NCBI GenBank assembly: GCA_003142535.1
Contig: PLMQ01000064.1
Location: 56,354 to 120,353 of the forward strand
Length of the DNA stretch: 64,000 nucleotides
Reading direction: 5' to 3'
Source: Syntrophaceae bacterium
GTDB lineage: Bacteria > Desulfobacterota > Syntrophia > Syntrophales > Smithellaceae
Shown here: piece after piece, positions 10,572 through 64,000 of the stretch
Layout: each line of letters begins with the position of its first letter
How positions within the stretch are numbered: position 1 is the first letter of the stretch
Program-made: the position numbers and the translations under genes
The notes under the pieces: generated by a model
What the model was told of the DNA's origin: nothing
Databases searched by the model: none
What the model saw: the letters and a program-made list of their open reading frames with translations, nothing else

Positions 10572-10728
10572 ATTTATTCGTAAAACTCCAATTCCGAAAG
10601 CAAAGCCCGGCGGATAACCTGAAGGTCACACGTGCTGGGCGAAGCGTATCGGAATTTGTAAGTTGAATCCGCCTGCGGCGGACTGCGCAATCGGTTTCCA
10701 ACGCTTGCTTTGGGGTTCATACCCGTGA
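10572..10728 (+). repeat. Type-1 modular hairpin repeat, copy A (frr/uppS intergenic)
   Basis: Shares the 5' core ATTTATT(A/C)GT(G/A)AAACTCCAATTCCGAAAGC and the 3' block AATCGG.TTCCA...GCTTTGGG.GTTCATACCCG with copy B. The interior is a string of short hairpins. Confidence 0.8.
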
Positions 10729-10802
10729 TTAAGCATCTCCTTTATTGAAAATAAGTTATCTGTTTGATAGAATATAGTAATTATAGTGAGGTTCGTTTTT
10801 TA

Positions 10803-26161: not shown

Positions 26162-26387
26162 CTTTCAAGTAATTTCTCCAAGTATGAATGCCTAAAATTT
26201 AATGTACCAAGGTGGTATTTTCAGAATATTTATGGAAACATACTTTATTCCTAAAAAAATTAAAATATAAATTTGTGTTTTAAAATCAATAGGAAACTAG
26301 ATTTATACTTCTGATACATTGCTGTAATAAAATGAAAAGTCAAGCTCGTAAAACATTGTAAATTTATCCAAAGAAGAAACCATCTCT

Positions 26388-29009
26388 TCATCTATTTCTC
26401 TTGATGAATGTCTCTTCAGTTAAAGAAATTCCATCGGTAGTAAAAGTAATTGCTCCATCTTGATCGGTGCGGAAAATATCAACACCTGCATCTTTGTATC
26501 TGCGCAAAACTGAAGGATGGGGATGATGGAAAACATTGCTTCTACCGGCGCTGACAACCGCATATTGGCAGGCTGCTTTTTTTATGAAAGCGGTACTGCT
26601 GGAATGTTTGGAGCCGTGATGCGGAACAACAAGAACGTTACTCTTTATATTTTGTTTTGTTTGCACCAATTGTTCTTCAATTTCGGATGATATATCACCA
26701 GTGATGAGAAAAACAATATCGCCATATTTTATTTTAAATACAAGAGATGAGTCATTTGTTGCATTGTCTGATGAGTAATGGGAATTAGCCGCAAGATACG
26801 GCTGTAACGGCCAGAGAATATTTATATCTGCTCCATTAATATTTATTGTTGCCGATTGCCGGGATAAAAATACTTTTTTGATATTTCTTTCAGCAATTAT
26901 TTTTTGCAAGATTGCATAATCTTCATCGTTGGTCTCATATCCCGTAAACCAGAATTCTTTTACATGGAAGTTGTCTAATATATATTTAAGACCACCATAA
27001 TGATCAGGATGAGGGTGCGTAAGGACTACAGTGTCAATCTGAGAAATTCTTTCGTGATACAGATAGGGTGCTATAACCATTTTCCCCATATCGAAAGTAC
27101 TGTCGGGAAAGCCGCCGCCATCAATGAGCATAGTTTTCCCATCAGGGAAACGCACCATAGTTGAATTCCCCTGTCCCACATCAATTGCCGTAATCTTTAA
27201 GTTTGAAGAAAATTTATCCTTAACCGAAAAATAAATACTTGTACTTATTAACAATGTGAAAACAAAAATTAGTCCATACAACAAAAACGGCCGGGAGCGT
27301 CTTCGAGACTCAATTTTCAGTGCCTCTTCTCTTTTTACGTCAATAAATTTAATCAAAAGAATGAAGAATAAATAAAATAATATAATTTCCAAGATGCTCG
27401 GTTTCGTAATTGCGAAAGAAGACCAGGATAAGTCTGCTAATTTATTTATTATGATAACCGATATTTGAGTGATGAAAGATGCGGCCTTAATGAAGAATCC
27501 GGCAAGCAGTGGAGAAAAGGAAAAGATAATTGCGAGTATGGATATGGCGAGCGCCACTTCTCCTAATAAGGGCACAGCAATCAAATTGGCAATAATCGTA
27601 ATAGCGGAAACTCGGTTGAAATAATAAATTATAAAAGGCAATGTACCGATGGTTGCGGCTATGCAGACGATTACGGCCATTTGCAGATAACGAATAATAC
27701 TTTGACTCCAACGCGGAATGTTCTCGAATGAGGCTGGAGTTACATTGCTGAAACGCGGAACAATATAAATAAGCGCGAGTACGGAGAGAAACGAAAGTTG
27801 AAAAGAAATATCAAAAAGGGCTTCAGGAGACAAAATCAAAATAATCAATCCGGCCAGAGCGAGAGTATTATATAAGTCCCGTTGTTTGCCGGAAATCAAG
27901 GCGATAAGGAAGATCAAGGCCATTAACGCTGACCTGACAACAGTAACATCCATGCCGGCAATAAGTGCATAAATTATAACCAGAATAAAAGATGCGGCCG
28001 CTGCTATTTTTATAATATTGAACCTGAGCATTAAATATTCAGAAAATTGCAGAAGAATAATTATCAAGAAAAAAGCCGTTGCCGCTACCATCCCGATATG
28101 CAGGCCGGAAATGGAAAGAATATGCGAAGTTCCCGTCTTATTGAAATTATCACGCACGTCTTCCGGGATAGCATTTTGATCGCCAATAATCATGGCCGTG
28201 ATAATTTCCCGCTCAGGTGACGATGAATTTTCGTAAATGATTTTTCTTAGATAATTTCTGAAATACTCCAGCATTAATTTCCAACTGCTGGCGGAATCCG
28301 CACGCAATAAAATTATGCGTGCTTTATTGGAAACAAAGCCTGTGGCATATATTCCCTGCCGGTTTAAGAATTTTTCATAGTCAAAACCACCGGGATTTTT
28401 AAAACTATTAATATTCTTCAGCGCTGATTGGAACCGGATAAAATCACCGTAATTAAAGTTTAAGTCCTGAGGAATTACCAGTCGGATATTGCCTTGTACC
28501 GGAATATATTGCGTATCATTCTTTATCCTCAGGCAACGGACGATCAGAACATTCTTTTCCGGATAAGAAATTGGATTTTCAATCACAATTCCTTCCATGG
28601 TTATTTTTCCAGAATTAACGTATCTGCTGACATGGTGATCTGCTTTTGCAAAATACTGCTGTTTCTGACTATTGAAGAGACCAATTAAAAAGGCAAAAAA
28701 GATAATTAATGAGATGCTTAATATTTGCCATTTATTAGTGAAACTCCAATTCCGAAAGCGAAGCGCAGTGGACTTGCTTACTTGAATAATCCTGCTCAGC
28801 GGAGGGTATAATATCCCGCAGTGAGCATTGGAATCGGCTTCCACAGACTGCTTTGGGTGTTCATACCCGATATTCATTAAAGAAATGATAATAGAGAAAA
28901 GAACAAAAATGGTAGAAATAAGAATAATTAAAAAAGATATATAAAAATAATTACCGATTATAATTCCGGCCACAAGACCGAAAAAAGGATATATTAATGG
29001 CCTGCTCAT
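26388..29009 (-). CDS. comEC: DNA internalization competence protein ComEC/Rec2 (with metallo-beta-lactamase domain)
   Basis: 873-aa polytopic protein with a competence-domain TM core and a C-terminal MBL motif LTHPHPDHYGG. The N-terminal loop carries an in-frame type-1 repeat copy. Confidence 0.9.
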   Translation of the reverse strand: MSRPLIYPFFGLVAGIIIGNYFYISFLIILISTIFVLFSIIISLMNIGYEHPKQSVEADSNAHCGILYPPLSRIIQVSKSTALRFRNWSFTNKWQILSISLIIFFAFLIGLFNSQKQQYFAKADHHVSRYVNSGKITMEGIVIENPISYPEKNVLIVRCLRIKNDTQYIPVQGNIRLVIPQDLNFNYGDFIRFQSALKNINSFKNPGGFDYEKFLNRQGIYATGFVSNKARIILLRADSASSWKLMLEYFRNYLRKIIYENSSSPEREIITAMIIGDQNAIPEDVRDNFNKTGTSHILSISGLHIGMVAATAFFLIIILLQFSEYLMLRFNIIKIAAAASFILVIIYALIAGMDVTVVRSALMALIFLIALISGKQRDLYNTLALAGLIILILSPEALFDISFQLSFLSVLALIYIVPRFSNVTPASFENIPRWSQSIIRYLQMAVIVCIAATIGTLPFIIYYFNRVSAITIIANLIAVPLLGEVALAISILAIIFSFSPLLAGFFIKAASFITQISVIIINKLADLSWSSFAITKPSILEIILFYLFFILLIKFIDVKREEALKIESRRRSRPFLLYGLIFVFTLLISTSIYFSVKDKFSSNLKITAIDVGQGNSTMVRFPDGKTMLIDGGGFPDSTFDMGKMVIAPYLYHERISQIDTVVLTHPHPDHYGGLKYILDNFHVKEFWFTGYETNDEDYAILQKIIAERNIKKVFLSRQSATININGADINILWPLQPYLAANSHYSSDNATNDSSLVFKIKYGDIVFLITGDISSEIEEQLVQTKQNIKSNVLVVPHHGSKHSSSTAFIKKAACQYAVVSAGRSNVFHHPHPSVLRRYKDAGVDIFRTDQDGAITFTTDGISLTEETFIKRNR
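28730..28876 (+). repeat. Type-1 modular hairpin repeat, copy B (inside comEC coding frame)
   Basis: The 5' core ATTTATTAGTGAAACTCCAATTCCGAAAGCGAAGC and 3' block AATCGGCTTCCA...GCTTTGGGTGTTCATACCCG match copy A. The comEC frame reads through its reverse complement without a stop. Confidence 0.8.
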
Positions 29010-29074
29010 GGGATTTTTATCTTTCGCGGTACTGCAAATTTATTAGCCAAAACATTTAAAATATTATAGCATGA

Positions 29075-29090
29075 TGGCAAGTGTATTGCT
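29075..29090 (+). promoter_or_regulatory. Sigma54 (-24/-12) promoter-like element upstream of the kinase/regulator pair
   Basis: TGGCAAGTGTATTGCT compared with the consensus TGGCACG-N4-TTGCW: GG and GC are correctly spaced. It lies 27 nt upstream of ATG 29117. Confidence 0.5.
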
Positions 29091-29116
29091 GCAAAAAAGG
29101 AAGATAATAAAATATA

Positions 29117-30802
29117 ATGTATATCGAACCAACACCAGACGACAAAAACAAGAAAAGGTTGCTCCTCTTAATTATCTCCAGAATTGCCATAATTACTCTG
29201 TTTCTGGGAGTCACCATTTTTATTGATATTAGTAAACCGGGGATATCTATATTTCCGTTGGTTCTCCGTTCTTTATATGCAATAATTACCGTTACTTATT
29301 TTTTTTCCATAGTTTATTTCATCTTTCTGAAAATACATAAAGACTTAAAAATTAATATACATTTGCAGCTGGTTGTCGATGTTTTATTAATTACGGTTCT
29401 TGTTTATATTACGGGTAGTTTACGGAGCAATTATTCATTACTATATACTTTAGTCATCATTTATTCGGTTATATTTCTGGGACGCAAAGGTGGTTTAATT
29501 GTTGCCTCGGCTTCGGGAATATCTTACGGTTTGCTTCTCGACCTGGAATATTTCAAATTGATCCCATCCATATCTTCAAGTGATTATGATTATCATCTTA
29601 CATCGGAAGAGGTTTTTGTTCGTATTTTGGTACACTTAGTATCGTTCTACATTCTGGCATTTTTAGCCAGTTTTGTCGTGGAACAGGAAAAGAAAACAAG
29701 GTCTTTATTAGAAGAAAAAGAATCGGCGTTCGATCAACTTGATTTGCTTTTCCGTAGCATCATCGAATCCGTAGATACAGGTGTAATGACTATTAATCTC
29801 TTCGGCCGAATAAAGACATTCAACAGGGCCGCGGAAGATATAACAAGTTTTTCTTTGCCGGAAGTAGAAAATAAACGTATAGAAGACATTTTTCCTGAGT
29901 TCATTCCTTTTTTTATTGCCGAGAAGGTTAATGAACAATCCAAGAGCAGAATGGAAGTTGTAATAAACGGGAAAAAAGCGAAAAGAATAAATCTGGGTTG
30001 TTCAATTTCTCAGCTTAAAGATAAAAATGAAAAACAAATAGGCAATATTTTAATATTTCAGGATCTTACAGAAATTAAGAAGATGGAAGATAATCTGGAA
30101 AAAAGTAAGAGATTAGCGTTAATTGGTGAAATGGCGGCAGGTCTTGCTCATGAAATGAGAAATCCTTTGGCATCTATTTCCGGTTCCATTGAGCTTTTAA
30201 AACAGGGTATTAATCTTGAGGAAACGGACAAGCGCCTCATGCGAATAATCTTACGCGGTAAAGATCAACTGGAAAATTTTGTCCGCGATTTTCTTCTGCT
30301 GGCGCGGTCTGTACCGGTTAAACGTGAATTAGTTAATATAAATGAAATTGCTGATGACGTTATTGAGAATATGAAATTGTCTCCATTTTGGTCGGACAAT
30401 ATAAAGGTAGTTCGTGTATTTGATAAAAAAGTTAATGCATTTGCCAATAAAGAACATGTCCGACAAATTATTCGTAATTTGATACTCAACGCTATTCAGG
30501 CAATGAAGGATACAGGAATTTTAACAATTAAAAACACGACAAGAAAACTTGACGATAAAAACGAATATGTGGAAATTAATGTTACTGATACCGGTTGCGG
30601 AATTGAAGAAAAATATTTACAGAAAATATTTGAACCATTTTTCACGAATAAAGAAAAAGGAACTGGTTTAGGATTAACGATTGTCGGCCGCCTTGTTGAT
30701 GGATATGGTGGAAAAATCAAATTCGAAAGTAAAGTTGATAAAGGCACAACTTGCACGGTATGGCTGCCCGAAATGAAGAAAGATATGCGATCACGGGTAT
30801 AA
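29117..30802 (+). CDS. Sensor histidine kinase (multi-TM N-terminus, PAS, HisKA, HATPase_c); PilS/NtrB-like
   Basis: About six N-terminal hydrophobic helices, H-box AHEMRNPL, and the N, G1 (DTGCGI) and G2 (GTGLGL) boxes. Confidence 0.88.
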   Translation: MYIEPTPDDKNKKRLLLLIISRIAIITLFLGVTIFIDISKPGISIFPLVLRSLYAIITVTYFFSIVYFIFLKIHKDLKINIHLQLVVDVLLITVLVYITGSLRSNYSLLYTLVIIYSVIFLGRKGGLIVASASGISYGLLLDLEYFKLIPSISSSDYDYHLTSEEVFVRILVHLVSFYILAFLASFVVEQEKKTRSLLEEKESAFDQLDLLFRSIIESVDTGVMTINLFGRIKTFNRAAEDITSFSLPEVENKRIEDIFPEFIPFFIAEKVNEQSKSRMEVVINGKKAKRINLGCSISQLKDKNEKQIGNILIFQDLTEIKKMEDNLEKSKRLALIGEMAAGLAHEMRNPLASISGSIELLKQGINLEETDKRLMRIILRGKDQLENFVRDFLLLARSVPVKRELVNINEIADDVIENMKLSPFWSDNIKVVRVFDKKVNAFANKEHVRQIIRNLILNAIQAMKDTGILTIKNTTRKLDDKNEYVEINVTDTGCGIEEKYLQKIFEPFFTNKEKGTGLGLTIVGRLVDGYGGKIKFESKVDKGTTCTVWLPEMKKDMRSRV

Positions 30803-30882
30803 TAACCACCGCTTAGGCGGGATAGTTCAACTTGCCAATCCCGATACGCTACGCTTTCGGAATTGGAGTTTCACTAATAAAT
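30800..30882 (-). repeat. Type-1 modular hairpin repeat, copy C (short form, between kinase and regulator genes)
   Basis: The reverse complement reads ATTTATTAGTGAAACTCCAATTCCGAAAGCGTAGCGTATCGGGATTGGCAAGTTGAACTATCCCGCCTAAGCGGTGGTTATTA. Its end overlaps the kinase TAA stop. Confidence 0.8.
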
Positions 30883-38646: not shown

Positions 38647-39447
38647 ATGGGTGAAATTATTTTACAAATAAATAATATATCTGTTGTATATTCAGATGTT
38701 ATACAGGTATTAAAAGGCGTTTCTTTAAGTGTGGAAAAGGGACAGATAGTCTCTCTTTTAGGCAGCAACGGTGCGGGAAAGACAACTACCCTAAAAGCAA
38801 TATCCGGCCTGTTGAAACCGGAAAACGGTGCCGTAACTGATGGCTCGATTATTTACGAAGGTAAGAATATTCAGAACCAGGCACCGGAATACATTACTCG
38901 CCTGGGAATTATTCAAGTCCTCGAAGGACGTCAGCCCTTCAAATATTTGACGATTGAAGAAAATCTGCGTGTGGGCACGGCAACGAGAGCCGGTAAACCA
39001 TATAAAGATGATTTGGATCTCGTTTACAACTATTTTCCCGCACTGGTACAAAGAAGAAAATCTTTAGCCGGATATTGCAGCGGTGGTGAGCTGCAGATGC
39101 TGGTTATCGGCCGGGCTTTGATGGCGCATCCGCAACTTCTAATGCTTGATGAACCTTCGTTAGGTTTGGCGCCACTGGTTGTCAAGGAAATATTCCGTAT
39201 TATAAAAAAAATCAATGAAGAGCAGGGCGCCACGATTGTTCTGGTTGAGCAGAACGCCAATATGGCCCTGCAGGTCGCGCATTACGGCTATGTTATGGAA
39301 AACGGCAAAATAGTCATGGAAGGCACATCCAAAGAATTATCGGAAAATCCCGATGTCAAAGAATTTTACCTGGGTATTGCGGCTACAGGAATTGCCAAAT
39401 CGTATAAGGATGTAAAATCATATAGGCGACGTAAGCGTTGGCTGTAA
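38647..39447 (+). CDS. ABC transporter ATP-binding protein, LivF-like, with basic C-terminal tail
   Basis: GSNGAGKTT Walker A, SGGE signature, LMLDEP Walker B. Confidence 0.9.
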   Translation: MGEIILQINNISVVYSDVIQVLKGVSLSVEKGQIVSLLGSNGAGKTTTLKAISGLLKPENGAVTDGSIIYEGKNIQNQAPEYITRLGIIQVLEGRQPFKYLTIEENLRVGTATRAGKPYKDDLDLVYNYFPALVQRRKSLAGYCSGGELQMLVIGRALMAHPQLLMLDEPSLGLAPLVVKEIFRIIKKINEEQGATIVLVEQNANMALQVAHYGYVMENGKIVMEGTSKELSENPDVKEFYLGIAATGIAKSYKDVKSYRRRKRWL

Positions 39448-39516: not shown

Positions 39517-39798
39517 ATGAATTTTACAAACGATATAAAATCGGTAACATATTTAAAATCCAACGCGGCAGATTTACTCAATCAAATAAACGAAACTCAG
39601 CGAACTGTAATAATTACGCAAAATGGGGATGCGCGGGCGGTACTTCAAGATCCGATAAGCTATGAAAATATGCGTAATGCGATTGGCATCTTAAAATTGA
39701 TTTCGCAGGGTGAGGCTGATACTAGAGGCGGGAAAGTTAAAAGTCAGGATGATGTTTTTAACGACATTGAAGTTAAACTAAAAGAAAAACTTAGATGA
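39517..39798 (+). CDS. Type II antitoxin, Phd/YefM family
   Basis: 93-aa ORF with the N-terminal pattern LKSNAADLLNQINETQRTVIITQNGDARAVL typical of Phd/YefM. Overlaps the toxin gene by 4 nt. Confidence 0.8.
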   Translation: MNFTNDIKSVTYLKSNAADLLNQINETQRTVIITQNGDARAVLQDPISYENMRNAIGILKLISQGEADTRGGKVKSQDDVFNDIEVKLKEKLR

Positions 39799-40127
39799 AC
39801 AAAAAATATAAAATACTTTGGGCCGAGGTTGCTGAACATGACCTAACTGATATTATCGAATATATTGCAATTGACAGTCCGGCCAATGCCTTAAAGATAC
39901 TGCAAAAAATCAAAAAAACGGCATCAATTCTCTATAGTCTTCCCGAACGCGGCCGCGTCGTACCGGAACTTCAAGCTCAAGGCATCCTGATTTATAGAGA
40001 GCTAATAACCGCGCCCTGGAGAATAATATACAGAATTTCCGATAAGAATATTTATGTATTGTCAGTTTTAGATACAAGGCGAAATGTAGAGGATATCCTT
40101 TTGAATCGACTAGTATACAGTAGATAA
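39795..40127 (+). CDS. Type II toxin, RelE/ParE family
   Basis: 110-aa ORF with an A..DL..I..YI start, the PERGR..PEL motif and WRIIYRI...IYVLSVLDTRR, typical of ParE/RelE-fold toxins. Confidence 0.8.
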   Translation: MNKKYKILWAEVAEHDLTDIIEYIAIDSPANALKILQKIKKTASILYSLPERGRVVPELQAQGILIYRELITAPWRIIYRISDKNIYVLSVLDTRRNVEDILLNRLVYSR

Positions 40128-40132
40128 CATTT

Positions 40133-40246
40133 GCTAAATAATTGTCCGAAAATCCCGATGTCAAAGAATTTTATCTCGGTGTCACGGCCACGGGAATTGC
40201 CAAATCTTATAAAGATGTGAAGTCTTACAGACGACGCAAACGCTGA
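40133..40246 (+). pseudogene. Orphan diverged copy of the livF-like 3' end (last ~33 codons plus stop)
   Basis: Aligns without gaps to 39328-39447. It translates to SENPDVKEFYLGVTATGIAKSYKDVKSYRRRKR*, against SENPDVKEFYLGIAATGIAKSYKDVKSYRRRKRWL* in the intact gene. Confidence 0.8.
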
Positions 40247-40251
40247 CTTTG

Positions 40252-40320: not shown

Positions 40321-40459
40321 AATAAACCTCAGACACAATCTCATTAATATTGATCTTAATATACAAATTTATATTCTAATTTGTTTTTTAATATAGTATA
40401 TTTTATTATAACATTAAGTTTGTAAATTCCATGTTCTGTGGTTTTCCGGAGATGTAATA

Positions 40460-42349: not shown

Positions 42350-42427
42350 GTCATTCCATGCAAGCAAAGCGCGACACGGAATCCAGTAAAGTTATTATAT
42401 CTGGATACCGGCTTTCGCCGGTATGAC
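42350..42427 (+). repeat. Type-2 palindromic repeat (GTCATTCC...GGAATCCAG ... CTGGATACCGGC-loop-GCCGGTATGAC)
   Basis: The motif is shared with 63746-63863. Perfect hairpin ATACCGGC-tttc-GCCGGTAT. Confidence 0.75.
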
Positions 42428-42447
42428 TGCTTTGATCTCGCTTTCTT

Positions 42448-45057: not shown

Positions 45058-45852
45058 ATGCTTATGCTCACCCATACATATCTTTTACAGCGTATTTTGG
45101 GTGAAAGAGTTTTTAATAGTAATGATTTAGATGCTTATGTTTATAATATTGTCCCGGATTTACTGACAATTCACCCCGATATCACCTCTCAACAAACCCA
45201 TAAAATTGAAAGATTAATGCATGTACCCGAAAGCTATCCCAAAGCAGCTTATATAATGTTTCATTTGCTTATTGATGATCTTTCGCATTATGGATCGATG
45301 TGTCCCGGCACTGTCGATGAATTCAATCCTGATTCACAGGGATATTCCTACATCCGGGGCAAACCCTTAATTCATTCTCTTTTAAGTTTACACAGGTCAA
45401 TAAATAACGAAATTTCTTACAATGAGGCAGCTTACCGTTCACACTTAATCATCGAGATGATATATGATCTTGTTATTGCAGATCATATAAATGTTGAAAA
45501 AACTATTGAAATCCTGGTTGAGGCTATAAATTTCACAGCAAATAAAAAGATTGATGAATTGGTATCAATAACAAATTGGATTTATAACTTTGGCGAAAAT
45601 GAAATAAGAGAAGTAATAGAAAAATCTTCCCGTTTCCTAACTATTGATCGCATGCAGAAAATAATGAATATGGAAGGACGAATTCGTCTTTACGCAGACA
45701 AATTCGGCCTGAAAAGCAATGATCCGCTAATTGCCGATGGCTTGAGAAAATTATTTCTTCAAGCCACAGATTTGGTTGATGATAACGAAGTTTTTCTGAC
45801 AGAAGCTGAAAAATCCATAAAAAAATATGGCTGGCTCCCTCCGGTTATGTAG
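45058..45852 (+). CDS. Hypothetical protein (264 aa), His/Asp-rich N-terminal half
   Basis: Long ORF with normal codon texture. No motif I can assign. Confidence 0.4.
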
Positions 45853-46099: not shown

Positions 46100-46101
46100 G
46101 C

Positions 46102-46350
46102 ATTATTTTATAGTGAAACTCAATTTTTAAGAGCGTAGTGAATTAAAAAATTGTTAGTTGAACTATCCCGTGAGCGTAGCGAAACGGGAATTGTGGCACA
46201 ATATAATGAAAAAGCAGCGCGTAACCTAAAGGTCACAAGCTAAAGTTTGATGAGCGAATTATCCCGCGTAAGCGGCGGTAATGAGACTCCAATTTCAAAA
46301 ACGAAGTGCATTGAAATTGGCTAGTCGAACTATGCCGCGAAGCGGTGATT
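46102..46350 (+). repeat. Type-1 modular hairpin repeat, copy D (long composite form, pfk/rpmB intergenic)
   Basis: Starts ATTATTTTATAGTGAAACTCAATTTTTAAGAGCGTAGTG, a degenerate form of the 5' core. It contains three GAAYTATSCCG hairpin units, a TAACCTAAAGGTCACA block shared with copy A, and a CCAATTTCAA/TTGAAATTGG hairpin. It ends one base short of the pfk stop codon. Confidence 0.75.
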
Positions 46351-46351
46351 C

Positions 46352-47659
46352 TTAATTCTTCATTGATGGCGGTTGACCGGTTGACTCTAATACGCGGAGC
46401 CAGACATTACCCCGGGGATCAATTCTTCGCCGAGATACAGCGGCACTTAAAGGCAAATGGACATATTCATCTTTCATCAAAGCTACCAGCAGACCTGTTT
46501 TCCCGGCCATTCCGGCATGCACTGCATATTGTCCCAATGAGCTGCAATAAATACTATCGGATGCATTAGCCTGAACCGAGCGGATCATATAACTGGGTTC
46601 AATATATTTTAAATTAATTTCCAGACTAATTTTCTGAAAATGCCTTTCAATTTCATTTTTCAAAAATATTCCTATGTCGTGCAGACGAATATTCCCGGAA
46701 GGATCGGTCTCCACTATTTCATCCGGTTCTCTTAATAAATCCTGCCCGGCTCCCTCCGCGACCAGAATAACGGCATGGCCGCTGGATTTTATTCTCTTTT
46801 CCAGCGCCTGAAGAAATCCTTTTTCTCCATCAAGGTCAAAAGGCACTTCCGGTATTAAAACAAAATTAGTGTCATTCTGCGCCAGGGCGGCATTAGCTGC
46901 AATATGGCCGGAGAGCCGGCCCATTATTTTAATCAGACCGATTCCGTTTACGGCACCTTTGGCTTCCACATGTCCACATTTAATAGCATGAACGGTCTGG
47001 GCTATTGCCGTATCAAAGCCAAAGGATTTTTGAATAAGATTAAGATCATTATCAATAGTTTTCGGAATACCCACAATGGAAATTTTCAGATTGCGTTTTT
47101 TAATTTCGGCCGTTATTTTTTGTATAGCACGCATCGTACCGTCTCCGCCGATGCAGAAAAGAATATCAATCTTCCAGTTACAAAGAGAGTTCACTATTTG
47201 ATTAATATTCTGATGACCGCGTGAACACGAAAGAATGCTTCCGCCAATATTGGTTATATCCTTGACTATTTCCGGAAAAAGCCGGACTAAATCATAGCCG
47301 TATTCGGGAATCAGCCCTCTTAAACCATACTTAATTCCCATTATATTTTTAACGCCATAACGATAAAACAGTTCCATAGTTATTGATCTGATTACATCAT
47401 TGATACCGGGGCAGAGACCGCCGCAGGTGACTATGGCTGCTGTGGTGAGGGAAGGTTCAAAAAAAATATTTTCCCGGGGACCGGCAAGTTCTATAGTCTG
47501 TAATCTTCTAGATTGATTATTATTATCTGTAAAACTTTCGGGATTACAGCCAAATAATATGCGCTGATTATCAGAGGTAAAATTTACATCATTAACCGAT
47601 GATTTAATCTTTCTTTCGCCTATATCAGCAATAGAAAAATCATTGTTTGGGATAATCAT
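46352..47659 (-). CDS. pfk: 6-phosphofructokinase (phosphoryl donor not resolved)
   Basis: GGLCPGIN, IGGDGT and PKTIDNDL motifs. Gly in GGDG is ATP-type but Lys in PKTIDND is PPi-type, so donor specificity is ambiguous from sequence. Confidence 0.88.
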   Translation of the reverse strand: MIIPNNDFSIADIGERKIKSSVNDVNFTSDNQRILFGCNPESFTDNNNQSRRLQTIELAGPRENIFFEPSLTTAAIVTCGGLCPGINDVIRSITMELFYRYGVKNIMGIKYGLRGLIPEYGYDLVRLFPEIVKDITNIGGSILSCSRGHQNINQIVNSLCNWKIDILFCIGGDGTMRAIQKITAEIKKRNLKISIVGIPKTIDNDLNLIQKSFGFDTAIAQTVHAIKCGHVEAKGAVNGIGLIKIMGRLSGHIAANAALAQNDTNFVLIPEVPFDLDGEKGFLQALEKRIKSSGHAVILVAEGAGQDLLREPDEIVETDPSGNIRLHDIGIFLKNEIERHFQKISLEINLKYIEPSYMIRSVQANASDSIYCSSLGQYAVHAGMAGKTGLLVALMKDEYVHLPLSAAVSRRRIDPRGNVWLRVLESTGQPPSMKN

Positions 47660-63745: not shown

Positions 63746-63863
63746 GTCATTCCGGACTTGACTTGTGCCCTTTAGGGTATCCGGAATCCAGTTATTCTTC
63801 AATGTTGTGTTTCCCGGCCATCCGCCGGGGCGACGTCTGGATACCGGCCTGCGCCGGTATGAC
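63746..63863 (+). repeat. Type-2 palindromic repeat, second copy
   Basis: GTCATTCCGGA...TCCGGAATCCAG, then a CCCGGC-catc-GCCGGG hairpin, then CTGGATACCGGC-ctgc-GCCGGTATGAC. Confidence 0.75.
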
Positions 63864-64000
63864 GACTTTGGGACTTTTTTATGAATTGCATAAGGCCTTA
63901 AGTTTGCGCCAATCTAGGGAGAGATAATTATAGAAGTAATTACAACATATTGGATGCGCTTCACTCTTCACGAGCGCCGTTATTAACAGTATGTGGTGGC

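Follow-up and report, generated by a model that had tools for sequence, protein, structure and literature searches.

The closest described systems are the following. The IS200/IS605-derived palindrome-associated elements and the REP/BIME repeats: these are mobilised by HUH (Y1) enzymes. The gene-overlapping MITEs (transposable elements of the miniature inverted-repeat type): these include QMITE1/2 of Coxiella, intragenic ERIC and the Correia repeats. The Rickettsia palindromic elements (RPEs): these are palindromic repeats found in frame within unrelated protein genes (Ogata et al., 2000, as described in a review, PMC10969869). Here we analyse a stretch of 64,000 nucleotides (the window) from a Syntrophaceae bacterium of the family Smithellaceae (assembly GCA_003142535.1, contig PLMQ01000064.1, positions 56,354 to 120,353 of the forward strand), in which one copy of a hairpin-rich repeat, copy B, lies in frame within the competence gene comEC. 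We consider it likely that this Smithellaceae repeat landed in comEC beside a TTTATT hexamer, and that the gene still encodes a full-length ComEC with a tolerated loop of 45 residues.

A repeat copy in the comEC reading frame

The host open reading frame (ORF; Table 1) is identified as comEC by the Pfam domains of its product, namely DUF4131 (the OB fold; E 8e-25), Competence (the transmembrane (TM) channel; 1e-62) and Lactamase_B (5e-18), together with matches to solved full-length ComECs (e.g. PDB 30bt at E 6e-87). The cryo-EM structure of the N. carbonis ComEC has three TM helices ahead of the periplasmic OB fold, with TM1-3 placed at the periphery of the channel (PMC13539106). The window protein resembles it in the full three-domain architecture, in the N-terminal set of three TM helices that precedes the OB fold and in the conserved motifs, and differs from solved ComEC in having an additional 45-residue disordered loop between TM2 and TM3; residue 73 of the solved protein aligns to window residue 123, and this offset of 50 fits the extra N-terminal length of the latter. 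In an alignment of 69 sequences 126 columns are invariant, and the window protein conforms at every one (H665, D669, H670, H797 and H798 among them); the HxHxDH metal site is thereby retained. Its AlphaFold2 model has a mean predicted local distance difference test score (pLDDT) of 83.5 and a predicted TM-score (pTM) of 0.77, and the score falls below 50 only at residues 53-88, within the insert. In a Foldseek comparison, the PDB library of which has ComEC as separate domains and not at full length, the C-terminal part of the model matches the beta-lactamase-like domain of ComEC (9ic4) with a TM-score of 0.88.

The length and boundaries of the insert were set by comparison with orthologues that have an empty site. 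The comEC strand reads copy B antisense as residues 47-91 (IGYEHPKQ...FRNWSFT), i.e. 45 codons, with N46 encoded by 28872-28874, and the adjoining TTTATT hexamer as AAT AAA, the codons of N92 and K93. A preliminary description of this DNA, made from its letters, had proposed that the ORF stays open through the repeat, and the 873-aa frame is indeed uninterrupted over 28730-28876, the peptide quoted there being exactly residues 46-94; the estimate of about 47 added codons is revised to 45 by the empty-site orthologues. The hydrophobic helices described on both sides of the insert are likewise present: AlphaFold2 places helices near the N-terminus at residues 6-21, 26-47 (pLDDT 90-95) and 81-120, the latter two corresponding to TM2 and TM3. 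Since the OB fold after TM3 is periplasmic and TM1-3 are peripheral, the TM2-TM3 loop is predicted to face the cytoplasm, away from the pore, a placement supported by the basic R-K-K loop. A predicted tryptic peptide, QSVEADSNAHCGILYPPLSR, lies within the loop derived from the insert.

We collected 120 ComEC relatives, of which 119 could be scored at the N-terminus. In 107 of these the TM2-TM3 loop is just three residues long (R-N/K-K-W), all 107 empty loops being clean, and in 12, including the window protein, an insert derived from the element, in one of three length forms, adds 31 to 68 residues at exactly this point. Pairs of close relatives display the two states directly: the empty allele of locus L095 reads ATC AGA AAT AAA TGG where the filled allele of L094 reads AGA AAT|CAC GGG...TTC ACG|AAT AAA TGG, a gain of 135 nt between genes with 87% nucleotide identity; comparably, the empty L099 (AAA AAT AAA TGG) is matched by the filled L098, which bears a heavily decayed copy of 96 nt, with the comEC genes sharing 92% nucleotide identity. 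From these pairs the target can be read as AAT|AAA on the comEC strand, or TTTATT on that of the element, and it pre-exists in the empty alleles. These orthologues, and the more than 100 copies found elsewhere in Smithellaceae, mostly between genes, bear out the earlier view that the segment derives from the repeat and is not specific to ComEC. Among N-terminally truncated ComEC calls taken up as candidate broken alleles, P0090 proved to be an artefact of a scaffold N-gap with the element in frame, and P0049 is devoid of the element. A metagenome scan with the ComEC body for a sister genome of the window returned only a 28%-identical relative.

All comEC copies measured have lengths that are multiples of three (Table 1). 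The 134-nt consensus of the repeat, placed in the comEC frame, would shift it and meet a TAA (GGGTATTAA); the window and L094 copies each have one extra T, at different positions. The extra T at GGGG-TTT-(C/T)AT is common to all ComEC copies of the large clade and occurs in 1 of about 70 intergenic copies, which suggests one ancestral insertion in that clade, followed by remodelling by three nucleotides or multiples thereof. An independent origin of the window copy is probable, judging from its different frame-restoring base (an extra T at GGG-T-GTTCAT), the absence of derived changes in common with the other comEC copies, and the position of its host in the other major clade among empty relatives. 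On the neighbor-joining tree of comEC, a history with a single gain would need about 12 precise losses; the alternatives would be about 7 independent gains, or allele exchange by recombination, and we rank none of the three. Recurrence at this site is explicable by the strict target of the element combined with the rarity of AAT-AAA sites at which 30 to 70 extra residues would be harmless.

Copy B is among the most diverged copies, with 26 differences from the consensus in an alignment to 23 other copies; it keeps 16 of 24 stem pairs, and its folding z-scores are only -0.9/-1.3, against about -5 for the consensus. Hence the copy is old. Its frame is nonetheless open and its length a multiple of three, and of shuffles of its 135 nt only 10% remain open.

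Table 1. Coordinates of the repeat copies and associated features of the window, with the lengths of copies at the comEC site
Feature	Position in window (nt)	Strand	Description
comEC ORF	26388..29009	minus	873 aa, intact from start to stop; frame open through the repeat; from the ORF list
TM3 codons	28674..28724	minus	ILSISLIIFFAFLIGLF, residues 96-112, directly after the insert, leading into the periplasmic OB fold
TTTATT target hexamer	28731..28736	plus	adjoins the element
Repeat copy B	28737..28874	plus (element orientation)	AGTGAAAC...CCCGATATT; 135 nt inserted (28737-28871), terminal ATT ambiguous with the target
TM2 codons	28875..28940	minus	ISFLIILISTIFVLFSIIISLM, residues 24-45, directly before the insert
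Repeat copy A	10579..10730	plus	intergenic, directly after a terminator-like hairpin; hairpin 1 loop holds a nested mini-insert, AACCTGAAGGTCAC
Repeat copy C	30789..30875	minus	short 87-nt form between histidine kinase and response regulator genes; folding z = -3.1
Variant multi-unit array (three units)	about 46100..46347	plus	same superfamily; intergenic, with ORF 45058-45849 on one side and ORF 46355-47659 on the other
Copies at the comEC site			window and L094, 135 nt; L096, 99 nt; L098, 96 nt; L102, 204 nt (135-nt type plus an internal 69-nt unit)

The repeat family and its other copies

The exact 19-mer of the left end matched at least 93 stretches in bacterial contigs taken at one genome per species, and among the matches listed nearly all are in metagenome-assembled genomes (MAGs) labelled Smithella, Smithellaceae, 'Syntrophaceae' or 'Deltaproteobacteria', often with many per MAG. 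From these loci we recovered 111 copies, 81 of them with both ends present; their lengths form groups near 82, 108, 133, 174 and 202 nt and above, with 133 nt the most frequent. Most are intergenic; about 2 of 80 sampled copies lie in frame inside genes. A few matches fall in other taxa: L016 (a Woesearchaeota MAG) contains a complete multi-unit element, from which we take its contig to be probably mis-binned; L019 (a Geobacteraceae MAG) contains the left end only; and in L044 (a Balneolaceae MAG) and L100 (a viral contig) the flanks are unrelated, the matches being apparently due to chance. A viral origin of the repeat was accordingly set aside, L100 being the single match in a viral contig. 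The family appears to be undescribed. Rfam gave no match at gathering thresholds for the window and eight loci, with only chance-level hits at E<10.

The 137-nt consensus has a modular anatomy: it opens with (N)GTGAAACT, followed by hairpin 1, whose arms CCAATTCCG and CGGAATTGG enclose the loop AAAGCGAAGCGYAG, then TAAGTTGAACAAT and hairpin 2 (CCCGC-GAA-GCGGAGGG); its right part is a longer palindrome, alternatively two CUUG-looped hairpins (CCGCAG-CTTG-CTGCGG and CCAAAG-CTTG-CTTTGG), and ends in GGTTCATACCCGTGATT. Hairpin 1 (9 bp) lies at a distance of 8 nt from the left end; the hairpin or long palindrome of the right part stops some 20 nt short of the right end. On both strands the consensus is much more stably folded than shuffled versions of it (z about -5). 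Across loci at least five different, fully complementary stem sequences surround one and the same loop of hairpin 1; because these alternative stems are all complementary, it is the structure, and not the sequence alone, that is conserved. RNAalifold detected no compensatory changes within the canonical subfamily, the copies of which are too similar, and compensation is visible only between subfamilies; G-T wobble pairs (11 of 835 pairs) are too few to decide which strand is structured. The ends of the element (GTGAAACTCCAATT... and ...GGTTCATACCCGTGATT) are not inverted repeats of each other, and complementarity between them, itself imperfect, is confined to about 12 subterminal nucleotides (CCGAAAGCGAAGC / GCTTGCTTTGGGG). 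Across 110 copies TTTATT is strongly conserved directly 5' of the element; past the right end (GTGATT) the sequence is random.

Besides ComEC, the element is found within genes at other loci. In L003 (341-469) it lies in frame near the start of a gene for a prepilin-like protein with an N_methyl Pfam hit (ATG GCG AAT|...|AAT AAA AAA GGT TTT ACC), giving the leader MAN|element|KKGFTLLE; prepilin leaders are normally cleaved off. In L040 (1145-1358), which is from a second MAG, a two-unit form occupies the same AAT|AAA site of an orthologous prepilin-like gene (KKGFTL[LI]E) and is out of frame with the GTG start; a frame that runs into the pilin starts at an ATG of the element itself (GGGTATGAAC). 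In L051 (550-657) the gene of a membrane-anchored GDSL/SGNH-type hydrolase holds a 111-nt copy, whose left junction is ACC|CACGGG instead of AAT|CACGGG; the copy is in frame and has hydrophobic segments on both sides. The copies that read in frame with their host genes are all multiples of three in length; given the out-of-frame copy of L040, we see frame preservation as a survival filter and not as a built-in property of the element.

The presence of further copies of the repeat in the window, asserted in the preliminary description, is confirmed by copies A and C, zero matches being expected by chance for a repeat 32-mer from copy B. The peptide core RFRNWSFTNK had been reported in the minus-strand frame of copy A: the core is shared, but that frame reads CFRNWSFTNK, and the exact string occurs in a plus-strand frame of copy C. 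The end of copy C encodes the last four codons (RSRV) and the TAA stop of a PilS-like histidine kinase (ORF 29117-30802); in L094, L095, L098 and L099 the spacers between kinase and regulator genes are short and devoid of this copy, and the C-terminal tails of the kinases differ. The multi-unit array, which begins with TTTTATAGTGAAACTC and finishes in ...GCGGTGATT, has the same skeleton as the repeat, TTTTATAGTGAAACTC-stem-GAGCGTAGTGAA-stem'-TAGTTGAACTATCCCG...CGGTGATT, with different stem sequences and the same type of loop. The 14-nt motif AACCTRAAGGTCAY, present in the window at 10616 and 46223 and at 51 sites in about 0.8 Mb of loci, is usually nested in the loop of hairpin 1 (copy A, L026, L031, L055, L062 and others); it is perhaps another mini-element, perhaps a module of the loop that varies.

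Several relatives have degenerate or short copies in the spacer between comEC and the divergent kinase gene (L094 at about 2647-2754; L096 and L097 upstream of comEC), a region struck repeatedly by the repeat. An element-borne promoter (TTGAAC-19 nt-TATAAT) for the divergent kinase operon was considered and discarded: 28650-29150 holds no promoter-like site, and about half of the copies have TTTAAT. Gene callers have turned intergenic copies into dozens of 'hypothetical proteins' of 37-84 residues (P0121-P0162), an annotation artefact; a protein search with the element peptide returned only 42 such short ORFs (37-84 aa) across intergenic copies and did not recover the ComECs, hence it is uninformative on long proteins. 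The window has other repeats as well: a 113-nt direct repeat with 81% identity and its copies 805 nt apart (39331-39443 / 40136-40248), one of them covering the 3' end of ORF 38647-39444, the second situated immediately beyond ORF 39795-40124, each open in one frame and with the look of coding sequence that was duplicated, of another kind than the hairpin repeat; a 35-nt repeat with 89% identity (42400-42434 / 63836-63870) containing the hairpin ATACCGGC-NNNN-GCCGGTAT; and an AT-rich pair of 56-nt inverted repeats, 82% complementary (26236-26291 / 40348-40403), the first arm of which lies just downstream of the comEC stop.

Explanations of the insert

In the explanation that we favour, a dispersed, non-coding, hairpin-rich repeat has inserted beside the TTTATT that forms the Asn-Lys codon pair in the short TM2-TM3 loop. 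The surviving variant measures 135 nt, a multiple of three that it owes to a T absent from the 134-nt consensus, and is free of stops in the comEC frame; its product would be ComEC with a mildly basic, disordered and cytoplasmic loop of 45 residues. As the copy aged, its hairpins have decayed, with the reading frame and the conserved ComEC residues retained. Of this, the derivation of the segment from the repeat, the insertion site, the clean difference between empty and filled orthologues, the frame and length of the copy and the loss of its hairpins are directly observed; the cytoplasmic side of the loop, its tolerance by a ComEC that still functions, and the mode of movement are inferred. 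Because the hairpins have decayed while the frame and conserved residues were kept, the ComEC protein is most likely still made and used, and the evidence as a whole favours a disordered cytoplasmic loop that ComEC tolerates. The preliminary description had posed the choice between a tolerated loop and a subtle inactivation of comEC: the evidence leans to the former, but does not amount to proof of it.

As for the movement of the repeat, five features suggest a single-strand and hairpin-dependent (HUH-type) or a comparable seamless mechanism: the ends are asymmetric, they are not terminal inverted repeats, the flanking hexamer is fixed, no target duplication is demonstrable, and empty sites are clean. 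The same features are a poor fit for a classical DDE MITE. The position of TTTATT ahead of the element, its prior existence in empty sites, and the clean state of all 107 of 107 empty ComEC loops are consistent with HUH-type seamless insertion and excision, without being proof of it. Neither tnpA, tnpB nor RAYT was seen beside copies or with these ends, no genome-wide protein search for tnpA/RAYT having been made. Composite transposons or autonomous copies were considered and rejected: the DNA between distant 5' and 3' ends encodes housekeeping genes, such as those for triose-phosphate isomerase, transaldolase and a glycosyltransferase.

Several observations weigh against this account. An open frame over 135 nt is only mildly improbable by chance, the insert staying open in 10% of shuffles. 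The gene of the closest relative, P0001 (86% identity), is called with a truncated N-terminus, and this sister lineage may have a broken version of comEC. A 45-residue loop between TM2 and TM3 could also disturb membrane insertion or the contacts of ComEC with its partners. With respect to movement, copies between co-directional genes are antisense to transcription in 27 cases and sense in 11, a bias that does not fit the simplest IS200/IS605 expectation. ATT stands on both sides of 49 of 80 copies and matching triplets on both sides of none of the 31 deviant ones; because the target is nearly invariant, this comparison is without power to reveal a duplication. Finally, no transposase or autonomous partner between paired ends, and no parent insertion sequence with the same ends, was found in the about 0.8 Mb of loci searched, as distinct from whole genomes.

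Some of these observations lend themselves to another explanation, according to which the insertion impairs or silences comEC, making it a disguised pseudogene or the victim of a mobile element that blunts natural transformation, with the open frame being incidental. Mobile elements do insert into competence genes, the N-terminus is missing from the sister protein P0001, the element disrupts the original frame of the pilin-like gene in L040, and one in ten shuffles leaves 45 open codons. We nevertheless hold this to be unlikely: copy B is old and has lost its hairpins, yet it is still a multiple of three and free of stops; no invariant ComEC column has been lost; the AlphaFold2 model is confident outside the loop; 12 or more divergent lineages have insert-bearing comEC genes of full length, decayed copies such as that of L098 among them; and the later changes in insert length (96, 99, 135, 204 nt) are all multiples of three. 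A further conception is that the repeat belongs to an undescribed kind of mobile element, built of hairpin modules and without terminal inverted repeats, which inserts seamlessly 3' of TTTATT and excises precisely; the Asn-Lys pair of comEC and the prepilin gene would be a reversible hotspot, and the element, by its coming and going in DNA-uptake genes, would modulate natural transformation. We think this improbable; if true, it would imply a conflict between mobile element and competence instead of plain tolerance.

The remaining alternatives appear scarcely credible. A misjoin induced by the repeat could have placed the element into comEC, since it exists in many copies and repeats can give rise to wrong joins in MAG assemblies; but with its 26 differences copy B is unique and hence no product of collapse with other copies, both flanks continue the comEC frame and the synteny with the kinase-regulator pair, and independent assemblies from other samples have an element at exactly the same codon pair. 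Similarly, the strong structure of the consensus (z about -5) might suggest that the element is taken out or skipped, either in the RNA or during translation, in the manner of an intervening sequence, such that the loop is never made; such removal would have no need of a stop-free sequence with a length divisible by three, yet every comEC copy has both, the structure is lost in the window copy, and Rfam offers no intron or ribozyme match. Least of all do we credit an ancestral ComEC loop from which the intergenic repeats were copied out as fragments. Homologous loops do occur in ComECs of only about 58% identity, but the loop is missing from 107 of the 119 scored orthologues and patchy on the ComEC tree, and the intergenic copies are far more numerous; their hairpins are intact and show compensatory variation in the stems, and the consensus is set by them, the comEC copies being the ones that depart from it. 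The preliminary description would have abandoned the repeat origin had loop-bearing orthologues lacked repeats elsewhere: such orthologues were found at this level of identity, but their genomes also hold other copies (L094 has a second, intergenic one), and the repeat origin is therefore not refuted by them.

Comparison with known repeat systems

The comEC case is best described as an RPE-like in-frame repeat insertion, probably tolerated, by a new repeat family in a new host. If so, the occurrence of selfish DNA within protein genes, for which Rickettsia is the best-known case, reaches free-living syntrophic Desulfobacterota as well, and a multi-pass membrane channel is among its hosts. The preference for the AAT-AAA target, combined with selection for cytoplasmic loops, cleaved leaders and multiple-of-three lengths, would decide which intragenic insertions survive, and the same comEC codon pair has been occupied in several lineages. 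For annotation, the repeat accounts for over-long ComEC models and for spurious 'hypothetical proteins' of 40-80 residues over intergenic copies. The TM2-TM3 loop of ComEC would be a naturally permissive insertion site, usable for protein tagging, and the clean pattern of presence and absence makes the repeat a candidate for an unrecognised mobilisation mechanism.

In-frame intragenic insertion had been called unusual in the preliminary description: this is true within the family, with about 2 of 80 copies, but the phenomenon itself is known from the Rickettsia RPEs, intragenic ERIC and the Coxiella QMITEs. The resemblance to the RPEs, as portrayed in the review (PMC10969869), is the closest: in either case palindromic repeats of some 100-150 bp are dispersed, non-coding, and in frame in unrelated genes with a peptide compatible with the host fold. 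Here the unrelated hosts are ComEC (the window and at least 11 relatives), the prepilin-like gene of L003 and the GDSL hydrolase of L051. There are also differences: the RPE hosts are obligate intracellular Alphaproteobacteria, as against free-living syntrophic Desulfobacterota; nearly half of the copies are intragenic in some RPE families, a share far above that given here; and the Smithellaceae repeat has a strict TTTATT flank and a modular, multi-hairpin build.

The gene-overlapping MITEs (Coxiella QMITE1/2, intragenic ERIC, Correia) are also small, multi-copy, structured and mostly intergenic, and they occasionally provide in-frame extensions or stop codons, e.g. QMITE2 in enhC, comparable to copy C supplying the stop of the kinase. 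The Smithellaceae repeat is MITE-like in being small, non-coding, multi-copy and present or absent at orthologous sites; classical MITEs, however, have terminal inverted repeats and target-site duplications, whereas the ends of this repeat are not inverted repeats and no duplication was demonstrable. With the IS200/IS605-derived elements and REP/BIME it shares asymmetric ends with subterminal hairpins, a fixed short flank without demonstrable duplication, clean empty sites, and a conserved loop with varying stems; it differs in that its units are longer than REPs and its orientation bias is opposite to the simple expectation. Its anatomy thus resembles that of HUH-mobilised elements, and we assign it to none of these families.

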